Shown in pieces: positions 863-12,244 of a DNA stretch of 64,000 bases. The first letter of the stretch is position 1. Each line of letters starts with the position of its first letter. A program made the position numbers and the translations under genes. The stretch comes from an uncultured delta proteobacterium. Lineage in GTDB: Bacteria; Myxococcota_A; Polyangia; Polyangiales; Houyiibacteriaceae. The notes under the pieces were generated by a model. That model did no database searches. It was not told the DNA's origin and was given only the letters and a program-made list of their open reading frames with translations. The DNA is taken from NCBI GenBank assembly GCA_963842915.1, contig CAWJII010000004.1, forward strand, positions 1 through 64,000, written 5' to 3'.

Positions 863-2203
863 ATGAGACTGCTGACGTCTAGGTTGCTCTCGCTCTTCTT
901 TGCCATTGCGTTCGGCCTCGCCACGACTTCGATGCTAGCGGCTCCGCTGCAGGCCGAAGCTGGCGCCACAGAGATCGTATTCGCGTCGGGACCGGATGGG
1001 ACCGGCACCGTGCAGCGGCTCATAGACGCATTCAACGAGTCGAACCGCGGGGCGATCCACGTGACTTGGCGCCAAATGGACAGGGAGAACAACGCCCATC
1101 GGCGACAGCTCGTCAAGGCGCTCTCCTTCAAGAAGGGTGGGATTGACCTGATAGCGACGGATGTCATTTGGACGGCTGAGTTTGCCAAGAAGAAATGGGT
1201 CGAGGACCTGACCAAGCGCTTCTACGAGGCGTACGATCGCGAGTCATTCCTTTCGTCGGCCCTCGGGTCCGCCACGTATCGTCTCCGCATCTGGGGTGTG
1301 CCCTGGTATACGGACGCAGGCTTGTTGTTCTACCGAAAGGACAAGCTCGCCAAGAGCGGGTTCAGTGCCCCGCCGGCCACATGGGAGGAGCTGGCTCGCA
1401 TGGCGCGCAAAGTCATGGAGGACACCGGCACCCGTCATGGCTTCGTCTTTCAGGGCGCGGAGTACGAAGGTGGCACGGTCAACGCTGCCGAGTTCATCTG
1501 GAGCGCGGGGGGGGAGCTCATGGTCGGCCAGGTGACCGCCACGGGAACCGTCCTTCCCGGGGTAGCCGAGACGGATGCGGTGCTGGTCGGCAGCGATGCG
1601 GCGGCGCGAGGTCTCGACATCGCGCGCAAGCTGGTGGCCGACAAAGTCTCACCCGAGGCGGTTGCAAGCTTTCGCGAAAAAGAGGCCCTCGACGCCTTTG
1701 TCTCCGGAGACGCGGTCTTCCTTCGAAGCTGGCCTTACGTCTACGCTTCGCTTCGGCAGGCAGGGTTCACGCTGGACCAGCTTGGGATCGCGCCGCTGCC
1801 CGCGGCATCCACGGGCGGTCGGAGCGCGAGCTGTCTCGGTGGCTGGAATCTGATGATCAACGCCAGCTCGAGCAAGTCCGAGCGCGACGCCGCGTGGAAG
1901 CTGATTCGCTACCTGACGAGCGCGCCTCAGCAGAAGCGCCAAGCCCGGGAGGCCGGAGTGCTGCCGATCCTCCGGGCGCTCTACGACGATGCGGACCTCG
2001 TCAAGCAAGTCCCCGTCATGGCGCTCGGCAACGAGGTCCTCACCTCCCAGTTGCATGCGCGGCCGATGTCACCGTTCTACAGCGAGGTGTCGGCAAAAGT
2101 CGCTCGCGCGTTCAACCAAACACTGAAGGGTGAGCTCACCGGAGCCGAGGCGGCGCAACGCTTGGACAAGGAGCTCCGAGCGATCGTCCGGCGTAATCGT
2201 TAG
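863..2203 (+). CDS. ABC transporter substrate-binding protein (family 1, sugar-type), orphan (no permease genes adjacent)
   Basis: 446 aa. N-terminal signal peptide (LLSLFFAIAFGLATTSMLAAPLQA). Typical SBP_bac_1 composition; WGVPWYTDAGLLFYRKD motif. Confidence 0.8.
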   Translation: MRLLTSRLLSLFFAIAFGLATTSMLAAPLQAEAGATEIVFASGPDGTGTVQRLIDAFNESNRGAIHVTWRQMDRENNAHRRQLVKALSFKKGGIDLIATDVIWTAEFAKKKWVEDLTKRFYEAYDRESFLSSALGSATYRLRIWGVPWYTDAGLLFYRKDKLAKSGFSAPPATWEELARMARKVMEDTGTRHGFVFQGAEYEGGTVNAAEFIWSAGGELMVGQVTATGTVLPGVAETDAVLVGSDAAARGLDIARKLVADKVSPEAVASFREKEALDAFVSGDAVFLRSWPYVYASLRQAGFTLDQLGIAPLPAASTGGRSASCLGGWNLMINASSSKSERDAAWKLIRYLTSAPQQKRQAREAGVLPILRALYDDADLVKQVPVMALGNEVLTSQLHARPMSPFYSEVSAKVARAFNQTLKGELTGAEAAQRLDKELRAIVRRNR

Positions 2204-2411
2204 GGCTGCGTGGATTAGGCCCAACGTACCGGCGCCGTAGAAAAAGATCCGACCGAGGTTGGCCGTCGGGAGTGGCGTTGGGAGGAGCCGGAATAGCATC
2301 GTCGACGTCGGCTGACGCGGCTCGATTCGCCTGGATCGCTCGCGGCACGGTTGCGGGCTTCGCGGGATTGGCGGCCGATAGTTGAAACAAAGGGGTCTCT
2401 GGTGCAATCCC

Positions 2412-2725: not shown

Positions 2726-4894
2726 TCATTCATAGCGGTTCGTCCAGATGCTCGTGCGCGTCCCGTCGAGCTGCGCCCACGCTGTCGTGACGTTCCCGTC
2801 GACGTCGACCACGACGTGGTGGCTCCCCGCATCGCCCGCACCATTGCTCACCCGCACCGCTGCACCCCACGCCCCGCTCGCTCCGATGCGTTTCGCGTAC
2901 AGGTCGCGGGCGTCGTCCACGGAGCCGCCGGGGGTCTGCTCTTGCAGCCACATGGCCGTGACGTCCCCCTGGGGATCGACCGCGATTTGCGGTGCAACGG
3001 CCTCGGTCGCCCCATCACTGATCAGCACAGCCGTGCCCCAGGAGCCATCCACGCGATAGCGGTTGGCCCAGATACCGAAGCGAAACTCCGTTCGCGTGTT
3101 CGACTCCTGCCAAACGGCCGTGAAGCTCCCATTGGGGTCGGCTGCGACTTGCGGGACGTTGGCGATTTGCGGGGTCGTCGGGGCTACCGGAACATCCGGA
3201 CTGATGCTCACCGCGTTCTCCCATGAACCTCCCGCGGGGCGCGATTGCGCGCTTGCGGAGCTCAACCAAGCGGGCACGTCGTATGGAAAATCGGCGAACA
3301 CCGCCATCACATTCCCGTCCCGGTCCACCGAGAGTCGGGGGGCTGGGTACTCTGTCCGACCCGCCAACGCCACAGGGCTCTCCCACGGCCCGCCCGCAGG
3401 ATACCGGCAGGCGAACAAGCCCAGGAAGTTCGACGCTCTTCGTTCAAGCGTCCACGTCACCGTGACGTTCCCGAAGCGGTCGACGACGACGTCGCCAATG
3501 GTCCAGACATTCGTGAAGAGACTGCCCTCGCTAATAGGAACTGCTGCGCCCCAGGGCCCCCCGGGCGAATAGTGGTTCGCAATGATTCCCCAGCGCAAAG
3601 GCCCCCCAGCATACAATACCTCGTACTCCTGCCTCCATACTGCCGTGACGTTCCCGCTGGGGTCGACCACTACGTGTGGTCCCCCGAAGTCAACGTTGCC
3701 CACGAGCCCATCATTGAGGGACACCGGCGTGCCCCACGGCCCGCCCGCCGAACAGCGCGTCGCGTAGATCGTCCTGCCATACCGCCACACGACCGTCACA
3801 TTGCCGCTGGGGTCGACCGCCGCGCGAGGGGCGACTCCATCGCCGAGAGGAAGCGCCGCACCCCAGGGCCCACCGGCCACGTAGCGGTTCGCGTAGACGG
3901 TAGAGCCAACGCCGTTGGACTGCTGCCACACGACCGTGACTTTGCCCTTGGGGTCGACCAGGACTTGGTGGCTCCTCGCATCGCCCGTGCCATCACTGAC
4001 GCGCACGGGGGCGCCCCACGGTCCATTCCTCGTGTAGCGGTTCGCGTAGAGGTGCGTGCGGCTGCCATCGAACTGCTGCCACACCGCCGTGACGTTGCCG
4101 CTGGGGTCGACCGCCAGCAGCGGCTGTGACGCATCGCCCGCATCGTCGGTTTCGATGAGGACGGGCGTACCCCAAGCCGGCTCCGCGCCGCCGGCGTCGA
4201 CACAGCGAACATCGACCGTCCAGTTGTCGATGCAGTGCTCGAAATCGTCATCGGAGACTCCGATGGTGATCGTCTCGGCCGCGGCCTCCCCGCACGTGAA
4301 GCTCGTCTCCGCATCGCTAGGGTCCGCAAAGGAGCCGCCGGTGGCGTTCCATCGATACGCGACCGTGTCGCCGTCTGTGTCCCTGCCGCTGGCCTGCACC
4401 TCGATCGCAGCGCCCTCGGTGGTTTGAAGCGGCGCGACGACCACTTTGTCGAGCTCGGCACAGACGTTGAGCGTTCCGTCGACGCGCACCGCACCAAAGA
4501 CCGGAGGAGCTTTACAGTGAAGCATCGCCATCACCCCGGTCACCCGGCCCGCCTCCACCGCAAACTCCGCCCCGCCTTCGCACGAGGTCTCCCCACCAAG
4601 CGACGCCGCAGACATCGTGACCCGATACCCATCGTCAGCCGCAAGCCCAAAGAGCTCGACCGACGCCGTCGCGCCCGCTGCGCTCGTGTCGATGACCCCG
4701 CCCATCGGAGACATCGTGGCGCTCGTGATCTCGTAACGGACCTCGTCGATTTGCACGCCGCTCGAAAGCTCGAGACTCAGCCGAAGCCCGCCCGTCGAAT
4801 CCGAGCGTTCGGCATCGCCGCCACAGCTCACCGCGAGCGCACCCACCACGACAACGACACCAAGCCAACCAACACTATGAAATAGAGGCACCAT
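2726..4894 (-). CDS. secreted lipoprotein with Ig-like N-terminal region and ~12 tandem ~45-aa beta-propeller-type repeats (SBBP-like)
   Basis: 722 aa. Lipobox (LAVSCGG). Repeated unit YANRY..GPWG.PV.vS.G.....P.vaVDPsGNVTvVWqQ.dG. Frame is coherent over 2.1 kb. Confidence 0.7.
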   Translation of the reverse strand: MVPLFHSVGWLGVVVVVGALAVSCGGDAERSDSTGGLRLSLELSSGVQIDEVRYEITSATMSPMGGVIDTSAAGATASVELFGLAADDGYRVTMSAASLGGETSCEGGAEFAVEAGRVTGVMAMLHCKAPPVFGAVRVDGTLNVCAELDKVVVAPLQTTEGAAIEVQASGRDTDGDTVAYRWNATGGSFADPSDAETSFTCGEAAAETITIGVSDDDFEHCIDNWTVDVRCVDAGGAEPAWGTPVLIETDDAGDASQPLLAVDPSGNVTAVWQQFDGSRTHLYANRYTRNGPWGAPVRVSDGTGDARSHQVLVDPKGKVTVVWQQSNGVGSTVYANRYVAGGPWGAALPLGDGVAPRAAVDPSGNVTVVWRYGRTIYATRCSAGGPWGTPVSLNDGLVGNVDFGGPHVVVDPSGNVTAVWRQEYEVLYAGGPLRWGIIANHYSPGGPWGAAVPISEGSLFTNVWTIGDVVVDRFGNVTVTWTLERRASNFLGLFACRYPAGGPWESPVALAGRTEYPAPRLSVDRDGNVMAVFADFPYDVPAWLSSASAQSRPAGGSWENAVSISPDVPVAPTTPQIANVPQVAADPNGSFTAVWQESNTRTEFRFGIWANRYRVDGSWGTAVLISDGATEAVAPQIAVDPQGDVTAMWLQEQTPGGSVDDARDLYAKRIGASGAWGAAVRVSNGAGDAGSHHVVVDVDGNVTTAWAQLDGTRTSIWTNRYE

Positions 4895-4985: not shown

Positions 4986-5750
4986 TTATGCGATGAGAAG
5001 TCGCTGATGCTGTTGGCGAAAGAGGGATTGGGCTTGGCGGAGCCGACTGAAGGAGACGGGAATGGGGATCTTGTGCTCGAGGATGAGGAGTCCGACGACG
5101 GTTACGGAGAAAGCTCTTCGGGTTTTGACGGTGTTGGCTTGCAGTGGCTTGGCCGCTCCTGCTTGTTCACCGAGACATCCGAGCAAGGACGCAGCCCACA
5201 AGGCCAGAGCGACCAAGAGCAGCAAGACGTGCAGGCGCTCGGTCTGGCGCACCGACACATGACCGAGCCCGAGTCCGAAGCGCAGATTCTTCCCGTCTCG
5301 AAAGGCCTGTTCGCAGCGCATGCGACTCGCGTAGATTCGCGAGATGCATGGCGCGCTGAGCTCGTGGACGGAGCACGCCAGCACCCACTGCCTAACCGGG
5401 GCACCGGGGAGCACGTGGTCGATGAGATGCGCCGCACGCTCGACCATGCGACGCCCTCCGCAGCTCGGGCAAAAGCCTCGGCCTTTGCACGAAAACGCAA
5501 CCAACCGATCGGTGCCGCAGCCCGTACACGAAAGCCGGGCAAAGCCATGCGCGAGGATGCCGCAGCGAACGAATCGCTGAAACTCGCGCTTCACGAACAA
5601 AGGAGCGCCGCGCTGGTCGCCCTGCCGGTCGAGCTCCCCAAGGAAGGTCCGCAGGTGCTCGACGACGACGCGGTGGAGCACCCCATGCTCCGGCGCACGA
5701 CGCACGTAGGATCGAGAAATCGCCTCGCTCGCCGCGGCGTGAAACTCCAC
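4986..5750 (-). pseudogene. IS91-family transposase, N-terminal remnant (zinc-binding domain intact, HUH catalytic domain absent or decayed)
   Basis: Residues FQRFVRCGILAHGFARLSCTGCGTDRLVAFSCKGRGFCPSCGGRRMVERAAHLIDHVLPGAPVRQWVL closely match the IS91 TnpA N-terminus (…KLVAFSCKRRGFCPSCGARRM…HLVDHVLPhVPVRQWVL). Similarity is lost after ~130 aa, and the ORF is 254 aa against ~400 aa for intact TnpA. Confidence 0.65.
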
Positions 5751-6281
5751 GACTACGGAACACCATCAAGACTCGTGCCGTTGTCAGCCAAGGGGATTCC
5801 GGCGTGTTTGTGACGAGTATCGCGTATGGAAGTAGCGAGACGCTGGCGTCGCGCCGGCGGCCGCCAGCCGGAAGCCCCTGGGTCGGTTGCCTCAGGTGAA
5901 CGAGCGCAAGGGCAATCAGCTCCGTCGCTCCTGTGCTTCTGCGACGTGTTCGGTTGCGTCGTCGTCGGCGCTAAGCACCATCGAAGCAAGCTCCAACGCT
6001 TTGCGGACGGCAAACTCAGGAGAGACGTCATGCAAGAGCTCTTGGGCGACCTGGAATGTCGGCATCTCGATGACCGCTCTTGCAAAGTCGTGAACCCGCG
6101 CGATCGACACGTCGCCACCGTGAGCTACGGCGCGGAGCAGATCGCGTGCGCGATTCTTCAGCACTGGTGAGAAATCGGGCCTTCCGAGGGTGTTCTCGGG
6201 CGTTCCGGACCGACTTGCACCCTTGAATTCGTTGGCTTTTTGATCTTCAACGTCTGCTAAGGATCTAGTGAGGTAACACTC

Positions 6282-6312
6282 GTGGAGGTTCGAGTCCTCT
6301 CTTCCGCACCGG
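6282..6312 (+). other. tRNA 3'-end mimic: T-stem/loop (GGAGG-TTCGAGT-CCTCT), 7-nt acceptor 3' strand (CTTCCGC) and ACC; no matching 5' half within 300 bp
   Basis: Read directly. The 5' acceptor strand GCGGAAG is absent upstream and no D or anticodon arm can be folded, so this is not a tRNA gene. Confidence 0.5.
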
Positions 6313-6396
6313 GTTCTCTGTAAACATTTCATACGTATCTACGAGGACTCGACCTACGGTGTACTCGGCCCCTGTTAGGGGCCTGCGTATTGCACC
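6291..6396 (+). repeat. 106-bp repeat, copy 1 (starts inside the tRNA-like acceptor strand; contains a 9-bp-stem hairpin cgagtcctc…gaggactcg and a GC hairpin ggcccctgttaggggcc)
   Basis: Identical to 6457..6562 except for one a/g difference; period 166 bp. Confidence 0.8.
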
Positions 6397-6456
6397 TGGA
6401 ATCCGGCAGCTCCGTGGACTGTGTCCACTCCGACTTTGCCGCATTCCAGTCACACA

Positions 6457-6562
6457 CGAGTCCTCTCTTCCGCACCGGGTTCTCTGTAAACGTTTCATAC
6501 GTATCTACGAGGACTCGACCTACGGTGTACTCGGCCCCTGTTAGGGGCCTGCGTATTGCACC
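6457..6562 (+). repeat. 106-bp repeat, copy 2
   Basis: See copy 1. The 60-bp spacers after each copy are only loosely similar. Confidence 0.8.
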
Positions 6563-6619
6563 GGGAGCCGGGCTCAAGGAACTGCACGCGCTGTGGCAGA
6601 AGATCCCAGCGATGGCTGC

Positions 6620-6665
6620 TTGACAGATTGTACATACATCTTAAGAAAGATGTATGTACAATCTC
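6620..6665 (+). promoter_or_regulatory. TTGACA hexamer followed by a perfect inverted repeat agattgtacatacatctt-aaga-aagatgtatgtacaatct (18-bp arms) that contains the ATG of ORF 6654
   Basis: Read directly; AT-rich in a ~69% GC background. A 17-bp spacing after TTGACA gives a weak -10 (taagaa), so the transcript would be leaderless or near-leaderless. Confidence 0.6.
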
Positions 6666-7136
6666 CCTGAGCTCTTTCTCGCCCTCGACCAATGGGTGGC
6701 CAAGGAGAACGTCCGGGCTCGGACCGATGGGATGCTTCCGCACAAGAAGTGCACCATTCGCGTGCTCGGGCAGGCCGCTCTGTGGGTCGGCAAGCCCGAT
6801 CTCACCCTGACTGCCACCCAAGACCTCGATGCGTACGCAGATTTCGAGTGGGCGGTTCAGCGGGAGCTGGAGCGGCTGCTGGCCAAAGAGGGGAAGGTTC
6901 TCGATCCACATGGACACGAGGTGTGGATGCCGCGCGAGACGCGGTACGATCCGCTCTACAAGGGCACTCACGTCGAAGCATTCGTCGCCGACCCCGATGC
7001 CGTTCTGATCTCCAAGGCCTCGAAAGCGGCCGAGAAGAACAAATCCCTGATCACGGAGTACCTAGCCAAGGGTGCGAGCGAGCGCTTCTTCGAGCTCGCG
7101 CAGAAGTACGACGTGGACTTGGAGCAGTTTGTATGA
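6654..7136 (+). CDS. hypothetical protein, gene A of an overlapping pair (weak minimal-nucleotidyltransferase-like pattern; function unknown)
   Basis: 160 aa, non-repetitive, sensible composition. Possible G…DLD…D.D spacing (LGQAALWVGKPDLTLTATQDLDAY … FVADPD). Stop overlaps the next start (ATGA). Confidence 0.5.
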   Translation: MYNLPELFLALDQWVAKENVRARTDGMLPHKKCTIRVLGQAALWVGKPDLTLTATQDLDAYADFEWAVQRELERLLAKEGKVLDPHGHEVWMPRETRYDPLYKGTHVEAFVADPDAVLISKASKAAEKNKSLITEYLAKGASERFFELAQKYDVDLEQFV

Positions 7137-7669
7137 CGCGGGCCCAAGAGGAGCTGGGGGCGAGGGCGCGCAAACGGTATACGGCGCTACGACGCAAGCA
7201 TCGAGATCCCCGTTTCCGAAACGTGATCGGCCGCTTTGTCAGCGAGGGCTTGCTCGAAACCAACATCGAAGGGATTCGTCCGCGCAAAGCGCCGGTGCCA
7301 CTCGACGATGCGTTGTGGGCCGGCACCGTGGAGCCGCGCATCATGGAGCTGCTTCCAGCCGTGCTGGTCAAGAAGCCGAGCCTGCTTCGGTTGCCGCGGG
7401 ATCTTCCCGATGACGTCATCGCGGTGATGCACGCGATCCGCCATGGAAAAGCGGTGCCGAACTTTCGAGGCGTGCCGCCCGAACAATACATGCCCTGGGT
7501 TACCGAAGTCGGTCGACGCGGCAAGTCGCCGTCCGTGCTGAAGAGCTTTCGCTTTCGACATGAAGACGTTCTTCGCCTGGCAAGGCTTCGCACCAACCTG
7601 CCGGCACGCTCCGACACCGACGTGATTCGAATGGCTCTCGAAGCACTCGAAGCCTCGGAGCGTGGATAG
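7133..7669 (+). CDS. hypothetical protein, gene B of the overlapping pair (basic; C-terminal DVIRMALEALE, possibly ribbon-helix-helix-like)
   Basis: 178 aa from the ATG at 7133, which overlaps the gene A stop. The longer track ORF 6692..7669 is the same frame extended upstream through an Arg-rich artefact. Confidence 0.5.
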   Translation: MTRAQEELGARARKRYTALRRKHRDPRFRNVIGRFVSEGLLETNIEGIRPRKAPVPLDDALWAGTVEPRIMELLPAVLVKKPSLLRLPRDLPDDVIAVMHAIRHGKAVPNFRGVPPEQYMPWVTEVGRRGKSPSVLKSFRFRHEDVLRLARLRTNLPARSDTDVIRMALEALEASERG

Positions 7670-7878: not shown

Positions 7879-8247
7879 CTAGGCCTCGTGAAAGCCGCGC
7901 TGGCAGTCGACGCAAAACGGCGCCTCGGGCTTCGCAGTCAGGCGACGGAAGCCAATCGGCTCTTCGCATTTTCGGCAAAGGCCGTATTCGTCGCGCTCGA
8001 ACGCGGACAGCGCTCGCTTGCACTGGCCGAGCCGGAGCTGGGCCTTGTGACGCGTCGCTTTTGCCATGGCTTGCTGCTGCATCGCGTCCATCCGCGAGAG
8101 ACGGCCGACCGAACTCTGGTCGAGCGCCACGGGCGCAGCCGAGCTCGCGTTGGCCCGAAGCGCGGTCTCGAGCTCGGCAATGAGCGCAACGAGCTGCAGC
8201 CGCAATGCTTCGGCCTGTTCGGCTGAGAGCTCTTCCATCTCCATCAC
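7879..8247 (-). CDS. TraR/DksA family C4-type zinc-finger protein
   Basis: 122 aa. N-terminal coiled coil. [26 protein letters not shown] is the classic four-Cys motif. Confidence 0.85.
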
Positions 8248-10017: not shown

Positions 10018-11550
10018 TCAGAGGCAGGCAGCGGCAGCGGCGTCTGGATAGACGACGAAAGCCATGGATCGAGGCGGGAGGTCGGCAGGCCCCTGACCGA
10101 TCGGCACGGGTTCGAGCGCCGGCAGAACGCCATCGTCGTCGCGCAAGATCGTGCCGTTGAGTGTGATGTCCGATGAGTCGAGCGCGTCCGAGCTCAGCAC
10201 GTAGAGCTCCTTTGCGCCGCTCGAAAATCCGGCCACCTCGAGACGAACGCTCTTGTCCGGGTCGAGATTGATGGCAAGCACGGTCACCGCGCCGGGACGG
10301 TCATACGAGCAGTGCGCGTAGACCCGTACGTAGTCGTCGACCGCGATGCGCCCCACATCGAGGACTCGCTGCCCCATCAAGCGACGCCAGAGCACCGAGG
10401 CCCAGTAGTCGGGCCTTGGCTCCAAGGTAGCGTCATCGATGAGCCCGTAGTGCGAGCCCGATAGTGTTTGGCGCACGGACACCTGCTGACCACGGCGCGC
10501 GAGGGCGCCTAGTTGATCCAGCCACCAAAATGTCCCCTCGTACTTGTCCGAGGAGTCGGGTTGCCCGCCGTACTGCGCGTGTCCCGTCTCGCCGAGCCAA
10601 ATCGGAGTCCCGGGCGCCCCTGCATCGCGGTAGTCCGCGATCTCGTCTGCCCAGTTCAAGGCGAGGTCGAGGCGTTCTGGTGTGAGGAGCAGCCCACGCT
10701 CCCAGGGGTCGGACACGACCGAGCCACCGCGCTGCGACTGCTGCGGGTAGTAGTGCCAGGTGATGACGTCGATCAGGTCGGCGCCGCCCATCGCGAGGAA
10801 GTCGGGATAGACCTCCGTGACCTCTCCCAAGCTCGGCCAGTAGGCACTCGAAACACCGCCGAACATGAAGTCGTCGTAGAACTCTTCCAAGAGCGCCCGG
10901 GCCGCCGCGAAGTCCGCAACCACCTGCGATGGACCAATCGCGACGCCGTGCAGAAAGAAGAGGTCCCACTCGTTGCCAAGCTCCCAGAGCGTCACGTCGT
11001 ACTCGTTGCTCGAGACATACTCGAGGAGCTCTCGTGCCATATCAGGGGTCCAGGCAGATTCATCGTCCCGCACTCCCTTGCCTGCGCCGATTGTGAACAT
11101 GACGTCGTAGCCGAGCGCCTCGGAGAACTCGAACACCCCGTCGACCTGCGCCGCGGTGAGCACGAACTCGAAACCTTCGGGCGCTTCTTCGATCGGGTCG
11201 GCGCTCATGTCGTAGATGACCCGGTCGGCATCGGTTCCGCCAATTCTCAAGAACGCAGGCGCAAGCTCTTGGGCGAGCGCACGCAGCCGCGGCCGGCTGA
11301 AGTCGTATTCAGGGACCCGTTCCTGCCCGACGAACTCGACGCTCCCATCCTCCGACCAGAAGCGACCCCCGACCAGCTGAGCGGTGTCCACCGCGACCGA
11401 CAGGTATCGCTCATCGACCGTCGCAACGGCTTGCGAGGCATCGACGCTGAGCTCGGCCGTCGTGTCGACAGGCGGGTCACTGGTCCCCCCGTTGCTGCTG
11501 CAGCCGGCAACGAGGATCGAAATCAGAAGCCCATGAGCCATATTTCGCAT
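10018..11550 (-). CDS. glycoside hydrolase family 79-like (beta-glucuronidase/heparanase-type) lipoprotein
   Basis: Lipobox LVAGCSS. Acid/base motif LWELGNE and nucleophile motif WLGETGHAQYGG (GET…YGG) are typical of GH79. Confidence 0.75.
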   Translation of the reverse strand: MRNMAHGLLISILVAGCSSNGGTSDPPVDTTAELSVDASQAVATVDERYLSVAVDTAQLVGGRFWSEDGSVEFVGQERVPEYDFSRPRLRALAQELAPAFLRIGGTDADRVIYDMSADPIEEAPEGFEFVLTAAQVDGVFEFSEALGYDVMFTIGAGKGVRDDESAWTPDMARELLEYVSSNEYDVTLWELGNEWDLFFLHGVAIGPSQVVADFAAARALLEEFYDDFMFGGVSSAYWPSLGEVTEVYPDFLAMGGADLIDVITWHYYPQQSQRGGSVVSDPWERGLLLTPERLDLALNWADEIADYRDAGAPGTPIWLGETGHAQYGGQPDSSDKYEGTFWWLDQLGALARRGQQVSVRQTLSGSHYGLIDDATLEPRPDYWASVLWRRLMGQRVLDVGRIAVDDYVRVYAHCSYDRPGAVTVLAINLDPDKSVRLEVAGFSSGAKELYVLSSDALDSSDITLNGTILRDDDGVLPALEPVPIGQGPADLPPRSMAFVVYPDAAAAACL

Positions 11551-12244
11551 GACGCCGATCTACGACAGGCAAGTTTGGCACGCCACGCGGCCGCGGCTCT
11601 GGTCAGCGGCGAAGGGTTTGCGACCCGCGGGCCCAGTCGATAGCCTGTCGGAGACGGGAAAGGGAGAAGTCGGCTTTGTCATTTCTGAAGCAGGTCATGA
11701 GCCTGGCGAGCTGGTCTGCTGGATGAGCAAGGTCTTCATCCACGAGATGAAGGAGCGGCTGCCCGAGTCCAGCGGCAAGCCTCTGGACTCGTACTCCATC
11801 GCCGCGGGATGCCTGACCGGAACCGTCTACGTCATCGCGGTCATGCTCGGCTTCGCTCTGTTGATTGTGCCGGGCGTCGTTGTGCTCGTGCGCGGCGCGG
11901 TGTGCATCCCCGTCTCGATTGCCGAACGCCGTGGGCCGATCGCCGCTCTGCGGCGCTCATGGGAGCTTACGGAGGGCTGGCACTGGCCCATTCAGGGCGT
12001 GGTGGCGTTGCTGATCTTGATGGGCGCCGGGACCATTGCCGTATTGGTTGGCCTGCTCGTCTGGATTCCCGGCGGCACGACGGTCCTAGGGAAATCCATT
12101 TTGCTTACGGTCGCCAACGTGGTCGGTTGGTCGACCATCACGGCCGTCGAGTCAGCGATGTACGTCCGGCTTGCCTTCAAAGAGGAACCTCGACGATCGA
12201 GCGCTGCACTGGGGAACGCTGCATGCGTTCGAGATCCTCTTTGA
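11549..12244 (+). CDS. hypothetical membrane protein (3-4 TM helices; true start possibly internal, near 11723)
   Basis: Hydrophobic segments IAVMLGFALLIVPGVVVLV, VVALLILMGAGTIAVLVGLLVWIPG and LLTVANVVGWSTITAV. Confidence 0.45.
   Translation: MTPIYDRQVWHATRPRLWSAAKGLRPAGPVDSLSETGKGEVGFVISEAGHEPGELVCWMSKVFIHEMKERLPESSGKPLDSYSIAAGCLTGTVYVIAVMLGFALLIVPGVVVLVRGAVCIPVSIAERRGPIAALRRSWELTEGWHWPIQGVVALLILMGAGTIAVLVGLLVWIPGGTTVLGKSILLTVANVVGWSTITAVESAMYVRLAFKEEPRRSSAALGNAACVRDPL

Follow-up and report, generated by a model that had tools for sequence, protein, structure and literature searches.

A nucleotidyltransferase-fold gene and its ribbon-helix-helix partner form a self-contained, toxin-antitoxin-like cassette in Myxococcota with a conserved operator over a probably leaderless start

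At positions 6620 to 7669 of the 64,000-nt stretch of contig CAWJII010000004.1 analysed here (the window), which comes from an uncultured Polyangiales bacterium, a perfect palindrome is followed by two short overlapping genes, A and B, and the question raised by this locus is what kind of system the two proteins form. An earlier note, made from the sequence alone, could assign neither gene to a housekeeping family and proposed a toxin-antitoxin or abortive-infection-like module under an autoregulatory operator. The difficulty of assignment is genuine: neither window protein has a significant match in Pfam, NCBIfam, PADLOC or PHROGs. As to the proposal, its toxin-antitoxin half is the best reading that we can offer, as the strict pairing of the genes, the operator, the predicted folds, the unrelated genomic contexts and the pattern of gene decay lean, if not heavily, towards a stand-alone autoregulated toxin-antitoxin-like operon in which A would act as the toxin and B as the antitoxin and repressor. 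So read, the A-B pair seems to represent a toxin-antitoxin family that is missing from the databases. The defence half of the proposal found no such backing.

The elements of the locus, in window coordinates, are the following:

6620 to 6625, forward strand: −35 hexamer TTGACA, read from the sequence
6625 to 6664, unstranded: perfect inverted repeat of 40 bp, with 18-nt arms and a 4-nt loop, holding both operator boxes
6629 to 6638, unstranded: operator box O1, TGTACATACA, in the spacer between −35 and −10, at position −25 from the ATG of A
6642 to 6647, forward strand: −10-like hexamer TAAGAA, read from the sequence, separated from the −35 by 16 nt and from the ATG by 6 nt
6651 to 6660, unstranded: operator box O2, TGTATGTACA, covering the first three codons of A and the inferred start of transcription, at position −3
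6654 to 7136, forward strand: gene A, 160 aa, Pol-beta-fold nucleotidyltransferase and putative toxin, its ATG inside the right arm of the palindrome
7121 to 7124, forward strand: Shine-Dalgarno motif GGAG of gene B, in the 3′ end of A, 8 nt before the ATG at 7133
7133 to 7522, forward strand: N-terminal domain of gene B (residues 1-130), conserved, very basic and helical, putatively A-neutralising
7523 to 7669, forward strand: C-terminal ribbon-helix-helix (RHH) of gene B (residues about 131-178) and stop codon

Both genes are real. Gene B as a whole occupies 7133-7669 on the forward strand (178 aa), and the ATGA overlap of the two genes that had been described is seen at 7133-7136. For gene A, an earlier start is excluded by the in-frame TAA at 6642-6644, and the assigned start is confirmed by the homologues, which are 158-160 aa long and carry invariant L11, D12 and W14.

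The two genes travel together. Homologues of A fall into 139 clusters when the single sequence is used as the query and into 309 with a broadened profile, all annotated as 'hypothetical' and nearly all 158-160 aa long, and no Pfam domain was found among the best 120 of these 309 clusters. For B, a word-indexed search returned 78 clusters and an exhaustive profile search 330 representatives at 50% identity. Almost all of these relatives, about 300 for either protein, belong to uncultured Myxococcota and Bdellovibrionota. Proteins identical to A and B come from a Polyangiales metagenome-assembled genome (MAG). A scan of one genome per species yielded 53 loci, all in MAGs, the carriers being mostly Myxococcota (Polyangiales and relatives), with a few Bdellovibrionota/Oligoflexales and a few bins labelled otherwise. 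Conservation of A and B as neighbours, which the earlier note had named as a check, holds throughout: by tblastn, B lies directly 3′ of A in 51 of the 53 loci, and the remaining two carry truncated forms of B, one a 60-aa stub (L037) and the other reduced to the N-terminal domain (L050), which makes 53 paired loci out of 53. Members of B picked for divergence or for a helix-turn-helix (HTH) end, too, follow an A homologue, at 29-43% identity. A 323-aa protein (P0201) considered as an A-B fusion was rejected as a frameshift artefact, its A part ending in out-of-frame sequence.

What surrounds the pair differs in every genome. The 150 flanking ORFs belong to 112 Pfam families, each present in at most two loci; since no flanking family recurs, there is no conserved third gene, and the A-B pair is a self-contained cassette in unrelated contexts. 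Mostly there is one copy of the module per genome, and the MAG JAFDFW01 holds two diverged copies on different contigs (L011 and L019), sharing 77% and 74% identity with A from the window. A generally mobile context, as the earlier note had it, did not emerge: tblastn against 72,556 plasmid and 50,697 GenBank phage records gave no match, and in IMG/VR the pair occurs on 1 of 2.9 million viral contigs. On that 36-kb contig (UViG_3300025173_000081; L063, 1-2338), a 31%-identical A and B pair sits at the very end, next to a tyrosine-recombinase-like gene (1382-2338, reverse strand) and phage-like genes, and may be either cargo of a prophage end or flanking host DNA. On the closest long contig (L001), an Xre-like-HTH/ParS antitoxin and RES-domain toxin pair (10472-11576) lies about 1.5 kb 3′ of A-B, so that two toxin-antitoxin-like modules are clustered there.

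What, then, is protein A? The earlier note had remarked on a weak pattern reminiscent of minimal nucleotidyltransferases, and structure comparison bears this out at the level of fold. When the confident AlphaFold model of A (predicted local distance difference test, pLDDT, 92.6) is compared with solved structures, it folds as a Pol-beta-type nucleotidyltransferase. Its nearest structures, with comparison values in brackets, are ANT(2'')-Ia (6.8, the best), the AbiEi antitoxin (6.4), MenT1 (6.0), TM1012 (5.5), a Paracoccidioides nucleotidyltransferase-like protein (5uvd; 5.3), a Helicobacter pylori putative nucleotidyltransferase (4ok0; 5.2), MenT4 (5.1), MenT3/TglT (4.7) and LnuA (4.5). Residues that stay invariant even in members of only 29% identity are L11, Q40, L43, T55, D57, D59, L76, D84, W91-M92-P93, E95, S120-K121, A125, K128 and Y152. 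In the model, G39-Q40 lies at the junction of β1 and α2 and T55-x-D57-x-D59 on β2, which is the canonical Pol-beta arrangement. The motif string reads L-G39-Q40-x16-D57-L-D59 with invariant T55; glutamine stands in place of G/S, and the arginine of motif II is absent. K121 and K128, spaced 7 apart with A125 invariant, resemble motif III (KLxAaxxR), and a +DxxD pentad of motif IV was not found in A, where E135 is invariant only in the closer alignment. A search of PDB sequences with the A profile gave no match. The protein is acidic (isoelectric point, pI, 5.4; family median 5.3). Taken together, these features lead us to treat A as a family of its own with this fold, probably closest to DUF1814 but outside it.

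Protein B has two parts. In its likewise confident AlphaFold model (pLDDT 91.1), the last ~45 residues alone match known structures, all of which are RHH repressors or antitoxins (NikR, MazE4, ParD/PrpA, TacA2 and FitA), and Pfam RHH_1 matches 11 of 36 B members when these are scanned individually, with nothing but RHH turning up in that scan, so that the RHH-like C-terminus suspected earlier stands on both structure comparison and a Pfam family. The N-terminal domain of ~130 residues has no structural match in a Foldseek comparison of the B model with the PDB, and PDB sequences searched with the B profile gave one chance match only. This domain carries the invariant polar residues E67, R69, E72, K80, D94 and R112, and the protein as a whole is very basic (pI 11.1). 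Neither a HEPN fold nor the Rx4-6H motif is present in B, in which R103 is conserved and H104 is not. In one sub-clade the same N-terminal domain is fused to an Xre-type HTH_3 domain in place of the RHH, a swap that leaves the N-terminal domain as the part always found with A and shows the DNA-binding module to be exchangeable.

How is the pair controlled? The palindrome is present exactly as it had been described, abutting TTGACA and enclosing the ATG of A. Its arms, 6625-6642 (AGATTGTACATACATCTT) and 6647-6664 (AAGATGTATGTACAATCT), are 100% complementary, and the final A of TTGACA doubles as the first base of the left arm. Nowhere else in the window does a perfect short-loop inverted repeat reach 13 nt, and on recalculation the chance expectation for such a repeat is ~2e-5 (64000 positions × 21 loop lengths × 4^-18), the same order as the 1e-5 given before. 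The perfect 18-bp symmetry is restricted to the window locus; the conserved part is a pair of boxes and their spacing. Alignment of the upstream regions yields a self-palindromic 10-bp box, TGTAYATACA, that is conserved family-wide and of which O1 and O2, the cores of the two palindrome arms, are the only matches in the window with at most one mismatch (0.26 expected by chance). At the same stringency, 48 non-redundant 106-bp upstream regions contain 50 boxes (9.8/kb), as against 12 in the other 534 kb of these loci (0.022/kb), which is an upstream enrichment of ~440-fold. With up to two mismatches, 44 of the 48 loci have a box and 27 have a pair, spaced mostly by 22-24 bp. Among close relatives (74-86% identity; group 1) the boxes are fixed at −25, in the promoter spacer, and at −3, over the ATG (13 and 10 of the 15 loci, respectively, with up to two mismatches), and in a group at 50-60% identity they lie near −52 and −28. 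That the box is the motif of a global regulator, LexA-like, is unlikely, given that no others occur in the window and only 12 in the 534 kb.

The operator also changes with the partner protein. Both HTH-type loci with upstream DNA have no TGTAYATACA and instead carry TATTATAC-N6-GTATAATA over the −10. This co-variation of operator type with the DNA-binding domain of B is the best computational evidence here that B would bind the operator, and together with the two family-wide boxes it speaks for the operator over the promoter and transcription start that the earlier note had predicted. In the two loci (L053, 5950-5997; L067, 1985-2014) the full HTH-type palindrome reads (C/T)TATTATAC-N6-GTATAATA(G/A), with the −10 hexamer TATAAT in its right arm and the start codon 5-6 nt past the −10. 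Many close homologues of A begin with Met-Tyr (ATGTAC or ATGTAT) while residues 3-7 vary, which suggests that O2 constrains the N-terminal coding sequence.

The promoter is built to a constant plan. In group 1 the order is TTGACA, 16-17 nt, a hexamer of the TAnnAn/TATAAA type, 6 nt and the ATG, with TTGACA or a near match equidistant from the start codon in nearly all loci (L020 being the exception); at the −10 position homologues have TATAAA, TAAATT, TATGTT or TAGGCT. Group 2 has a −10 of the TGn-TAGGCT type that likewise ends 6 nt before the ATG or GTG. Over the whole set, TA occupies −12/−11 in 31 of 48 loci, a sharp peak compared with at most 11 at adjacent positions, and a Shine-Dalgarno-like motif 5′ of A is found in only 3 of the 48. 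Given that the −35, the −10 and the start codon keep fixed distances and that Shine-Dalgarno motifs are nearly absent, the A-B mRNA is probably leaderless, as proposed before, with transcription starting at the first base of the A start codon. In Mycobacterium tuberculosis, most toxin-antitoxin operons are reported to be leaderless (PMC8485053). A start site inside the right arm would leave the left arm untranscribed, so that the palindrome would function at the DNA level, not as a hairpin in RNA; the A mRNA shows no unusual structure at its 5′ end (z = −0.5), and no terminator-like T-run follows the palindrome.

Decayed copies bear on which protein is the dangerous one. In four loci A is damaged: it is frameshifted and N-truncated in L052, lacks the SKAxKAPxKN segment in L055, lacks the catalytic N-terminal half in L058 and is reduced to a fragment in L059, and each of the four retains a complete B, RHH included. 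In L037 decay has affected both genes, and in L050 B lacks only the RHH. An intact A without at least the N-terminal domain of B was found in none of the loci in the set examined. Such an asymmetry would be expected of a toxin A that is neutralised by the N-terminal domain of B, and it contradicts a HepT/MntA-like reversal of roles.

If the toxin-antitoxin reading is right, the operon would work as follows. A sigma-70-type promoter (TTGACA, 16 nt, TAAGAA) would start transcription on or beside the A of the ATG at 6654, and the ATGA overlap, together with the GGAG of B, would couple translation of B to that of A. B would dimerise via its C-terminal RHH, bind O1 in the promoter spacer and O2 at the start site and so repress the operon; with box centres 22 bp apart, cooperative binding of two dimers along the same helix face is probable. 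A is envisaged as an active minimal nucleotidyltransferase, distantly MenT/AbiEii-like, which when free of B would transfer nucleotides to some target in the cell and arrest growth. The weakest step is the target, which by analogy might be tRNA 3′ ends, the precedent among nucleotidyltransferase toxins (PMC7450476, PMC10435456). The N-terminal domain of B may neutralise A either by blocking its active site or by inducing auto-phosphorylation of T55, in the way that MenA antitoxins induce auto-phosphorylation of MenT (PMC11375011).

Among known systems, MenAT and AbiE offer the closest parallels in the details of the enzyme. The DUF1814 motifs I and II have the form hG[G/S]-x15-DhD, with S/T two residues before the first Asp (PMC3985639, PMC11375011), and the G-to-DxD spacing is 15 in AbiEii/DUF1814 and 9-13 in other Pol-beta enzymes (PMC3985639). 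A has an [ST]-x-D-h-D strand and a spacing of 16, its T55 falls at the position of MenT1 T39 and MenT3 S78, which are phospho-acceptors (PMC11375011), and K121 and K128 are 7 apart like the motif III residues K173 and R180 of AbiEii (PMC3985639). These systems are also bicistronic operons, and ours is predicted to be autoregulated via promoter inverted repeats. There are differences, too: the PF08843/DUF1814 profile does not match A; A is acidic and has 160 aa as against 195-300; it departs from the consensus in motifs I, II and IV as set out above; the nucleotidyltransferase gene comes first, with no antitoxin gene upstream of it; and the partner is not a COG5340 winged HTH protein, COG4861 or of the MenA1 type, being instead a novel domain joined to an RHH.

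In the systems of HicB and MqsA, the toxin gene comes first, and the antitoxin binds the toxin with its N-terminal domain and has an RHH or HTH at its C-terminus. A-B resembles HicAB, MqsRA and HigBA in having the putative toxin upstream and a partner made of an N-terminal domain and a C-terminal RHH or Xre-HTH; the toxins of those systems, however, are small RNases and not nucleotidyltransferases, and the N-terminal domain of B has no fold similarity to HicB, MqsA or HigA. ParD, MazE4, TacA and FitA have an N-terminal RHH followed by a toxin-binding region, whereas the RHH of B is C-terminal, after a folded domain of 130 residues. In MntA-HepT, a nucleotidyltransferase gene comes first and overlaps the gene of a helical partner, with an acidic/basic charge pattern. 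A-B is similar in its minimal acidic nucleotidyltransferase gene upstream of an overlapping gene for a helical basic partner, and differs in that the NTP_transf_2 and HEPN Pfam families match neither protein, in the lack of HEPN hallmarks in B noted above, and in a decay pattern that marks A, not B, as dispensable and potentially dangerous. The resistance enzymes ANT(2'')-Ia and LnuA have no sequence-family match to A and, to our knowledge, their genes have no obligatory RHH or HTH partner and show no cassette-like dispersal.

These comparisons leave several rival explanations to be weighed. A could be a harmless nucleotidyltransferase acting on a small molecule or protein, an antibiotic or metabolite as with ANT(2'') and Lnu, and B a repressor whose N-terminal domain senses the substrate or inducer. 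The acidity of A, unlike that of typical RNA-binding toxins, would suit this, as would conservation at 74-86% with mostly a single copy per genome, which befits a useful enzyme, and neighbours that are not enriched in defence or mobile genes. Yet the stop-start overlap and the co-inheritance down to 29% identity suggest that A and B form a complex, the flanks vary in every genome and one MAG has two copies, and B outlives A in four loci, where a repressor without its target gene would not be expected to persist; moreover, [ST]xDxD, the long G-to-D spacing and K-x6-K match DUF1814 toxins. We regard this explanation as unlikely and keep it in play because the top structural match of A is ANT(2'') and because of the high conservation. 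The same four loci, with B intact and A destroyed, would be lethal were B the toxin, which bears on a reversal of roles along the lines of the type VII HepT/MntA system, with A as an antitoxin that nucleotidylylates B and the basic N-terminal domain of B as the toxic part. The nucleotidyltransferase-first overlapping order and the acidic A and basic B do recall MntA-HepT, and the invariant polar residues of the N-terminal domain could form an active site; B, however, lacks the HEPN fold and the Rx4-6H motif, and it is B that has the DNA-binding domain, a hallmark of antitoxins. Such a reversal strikes us as very improbable.

A role in phage defence by abortive infection (Abi) would keep the toxin-antitoxin mechanism and assign it to the killing or arrest of infected cells. 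The first of the nucleotidyltransferase toxin systems, AbiE, is itself of the Abi kind (PMC3985639), and the pair beside a tyrosine integrase on the single viral contig and the Xre/RES pair downstream of A-B in L001 point the same way. Against this, the PADLOC defence-system models match neither A nor B, the 25 commonest families of the 150 flanking ORFs include no recurrent defence or mobile family, enrichment of which the earlier note had named as a check, and the phage, plasmid and viral records are almost empty of the pair; defence is in our view a doubtful assignment. The palindrome might instead work as an RNA hairpin, either terminating transcription from upstream or hiding the start codon in a 5′-UTR structure. 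Its perfect 18-bp stem would be very stable and includes the ATG, and a chance match to Rfam nos_TCE falls on it at relaxed E-value (25 bits against a threshold of 60; at the gathering threshold, no Rfam family was found in the window). But homologues keep two 10-bp boxes and their spacing and not the complementarity of the stem, each box is itself palindromic, as expected of a dimer site, and the missing T-run and the position of the left arm outside the predicted transcript fit a hairpin badly, so that we give it hardly any weight.

Several facts nevertheless sit uneasily with the toxin-antitoxin reading. The carriers are all uncultured MAGs and the module is known from sequence alone; the decay asymmetry amounts to 4 loci versus 0, all of them in draft MAGs. 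At the level of the enzyme, nucleotidyltransferase Pfam families including PF08843/DUF1814 match 0 of 23 A members even at E ≤ 10, the serine/glycine of motif I is replaced by Q40, and a clear +DxxD motif IV is lacking. Usually the toxin is basic and the antitoxin acidic. An acidic A with a basic B is the reverse of this, and is awkward for a tRNA-binding enzyme. Group-1 proteins, at 74-86% identity across species, are unusually conserved for a toxin-antitoxin module. The TAAGAA of the window is weak, lacking the final T, and is not called by a simple promoter scan.

A bolder scheme, to which we assign a low probability, would see in the pair not one more MenT-like module but a nucleotidyltransferase system of new mechanism, restricted to the predatory 'delta-proteobacterial' lineages (Myxococcota, Bdellovibrionota), with an acidic 160-aa enzyme acting on a non-tRNA target or on B, and with the basic 130-residue domain of B as a new sensor or neutraliser that couples control of the enzyme to repression of a leaderless operon whose operator lies partly in the first codons. 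If A is a toxin, the family would be an uncatalogued branch of the AbiEii/MenT class, with a minimal enzyme of 160 aa, a reversed gene order and an antitoxin domain that matches no known fold, and it could help to establish what a nucleotidyltransferase toxin cannot do without and whether auto-phosphorylation induced by the antitoxin, here at T55, is general. The locus is also an unusually clean and comparatively supported case of a probably leaderless operon in Myxococcota, of an operator overlapping the first codons of the controlled gene and of an operator that changes alongside a swap of DNA-binding domain from RHH to HTH. About 300 protein clusters per gene, now 'hypothetical protein' in MAGs, would become annotatable; should A be a harmless enzyme with a regulator, the value would be limited to such annotation.

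Finally, the surroundings of the module in the window deserve description. Both flanks named in the earlier note are there: an IS91 remnant at 4986-5750 on the reverse strand (Zn_Tnp_IS91, E = 1e-16), which is specific to the window, and a DksA/TraR zinc-finger gene at 7879-8247 on the reverse strand (E = 8e-10). The lower-GC patch said to hold the pair is only partly there. GC content dips to 0.55-0.58 over the non-coding repeats and promoter at ~6000-6900; genes A and B are not low (GC 0.61 and 0.63, and 0.79 and 0.70 at third codon positions) and are comparable to neighbour genes.

Positions ~6251-6311 on the forward strand resemble the 3′ half of a class II tRNA, with a variable arm, a GGAGGTTCGAGTCCTCT T-arm and a CTTCCGCACC acceptor end; ARAGORN calls no tRNA or tmRNA in the window. 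Two 117-nt direct repeats (6291-6407 and 6457-6573), 96% identical and 166 nt apart, consist of the last ~20 nt of this fragment and ~100 nt of the DNA 3′ of it, and the second stops 47 nt short of the −35 of the module. The fragment and the repeats resemble what integrative elements leave behind at att sites. Of the other loci, only L019 has an 86%-identical fragment (1657-1714), which is found 5′ of its A gene in the opposite strand; a link between the fragment and the A-B module is unsupported, as it recurs in one other locus only and in opposite orientation. Further upstream, the 254-aa ORF that makes up the IS91 remnant joins the N-terminal IS91 zinc-binding domain to a C-terminal DDE_Tnp_1 transposase fragment (E = 9e-5) and is apparently a chimeric relic in which parts of two different transposases are combined. 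Beyond it, a 722-aa ORF (2726-4894, reverse strand) with a signal-peptide-like N-terminus and many 'VDPxGNVTxVW...G...Y/WANRY' repeats looks like a beta-propeller-type repeat protein.

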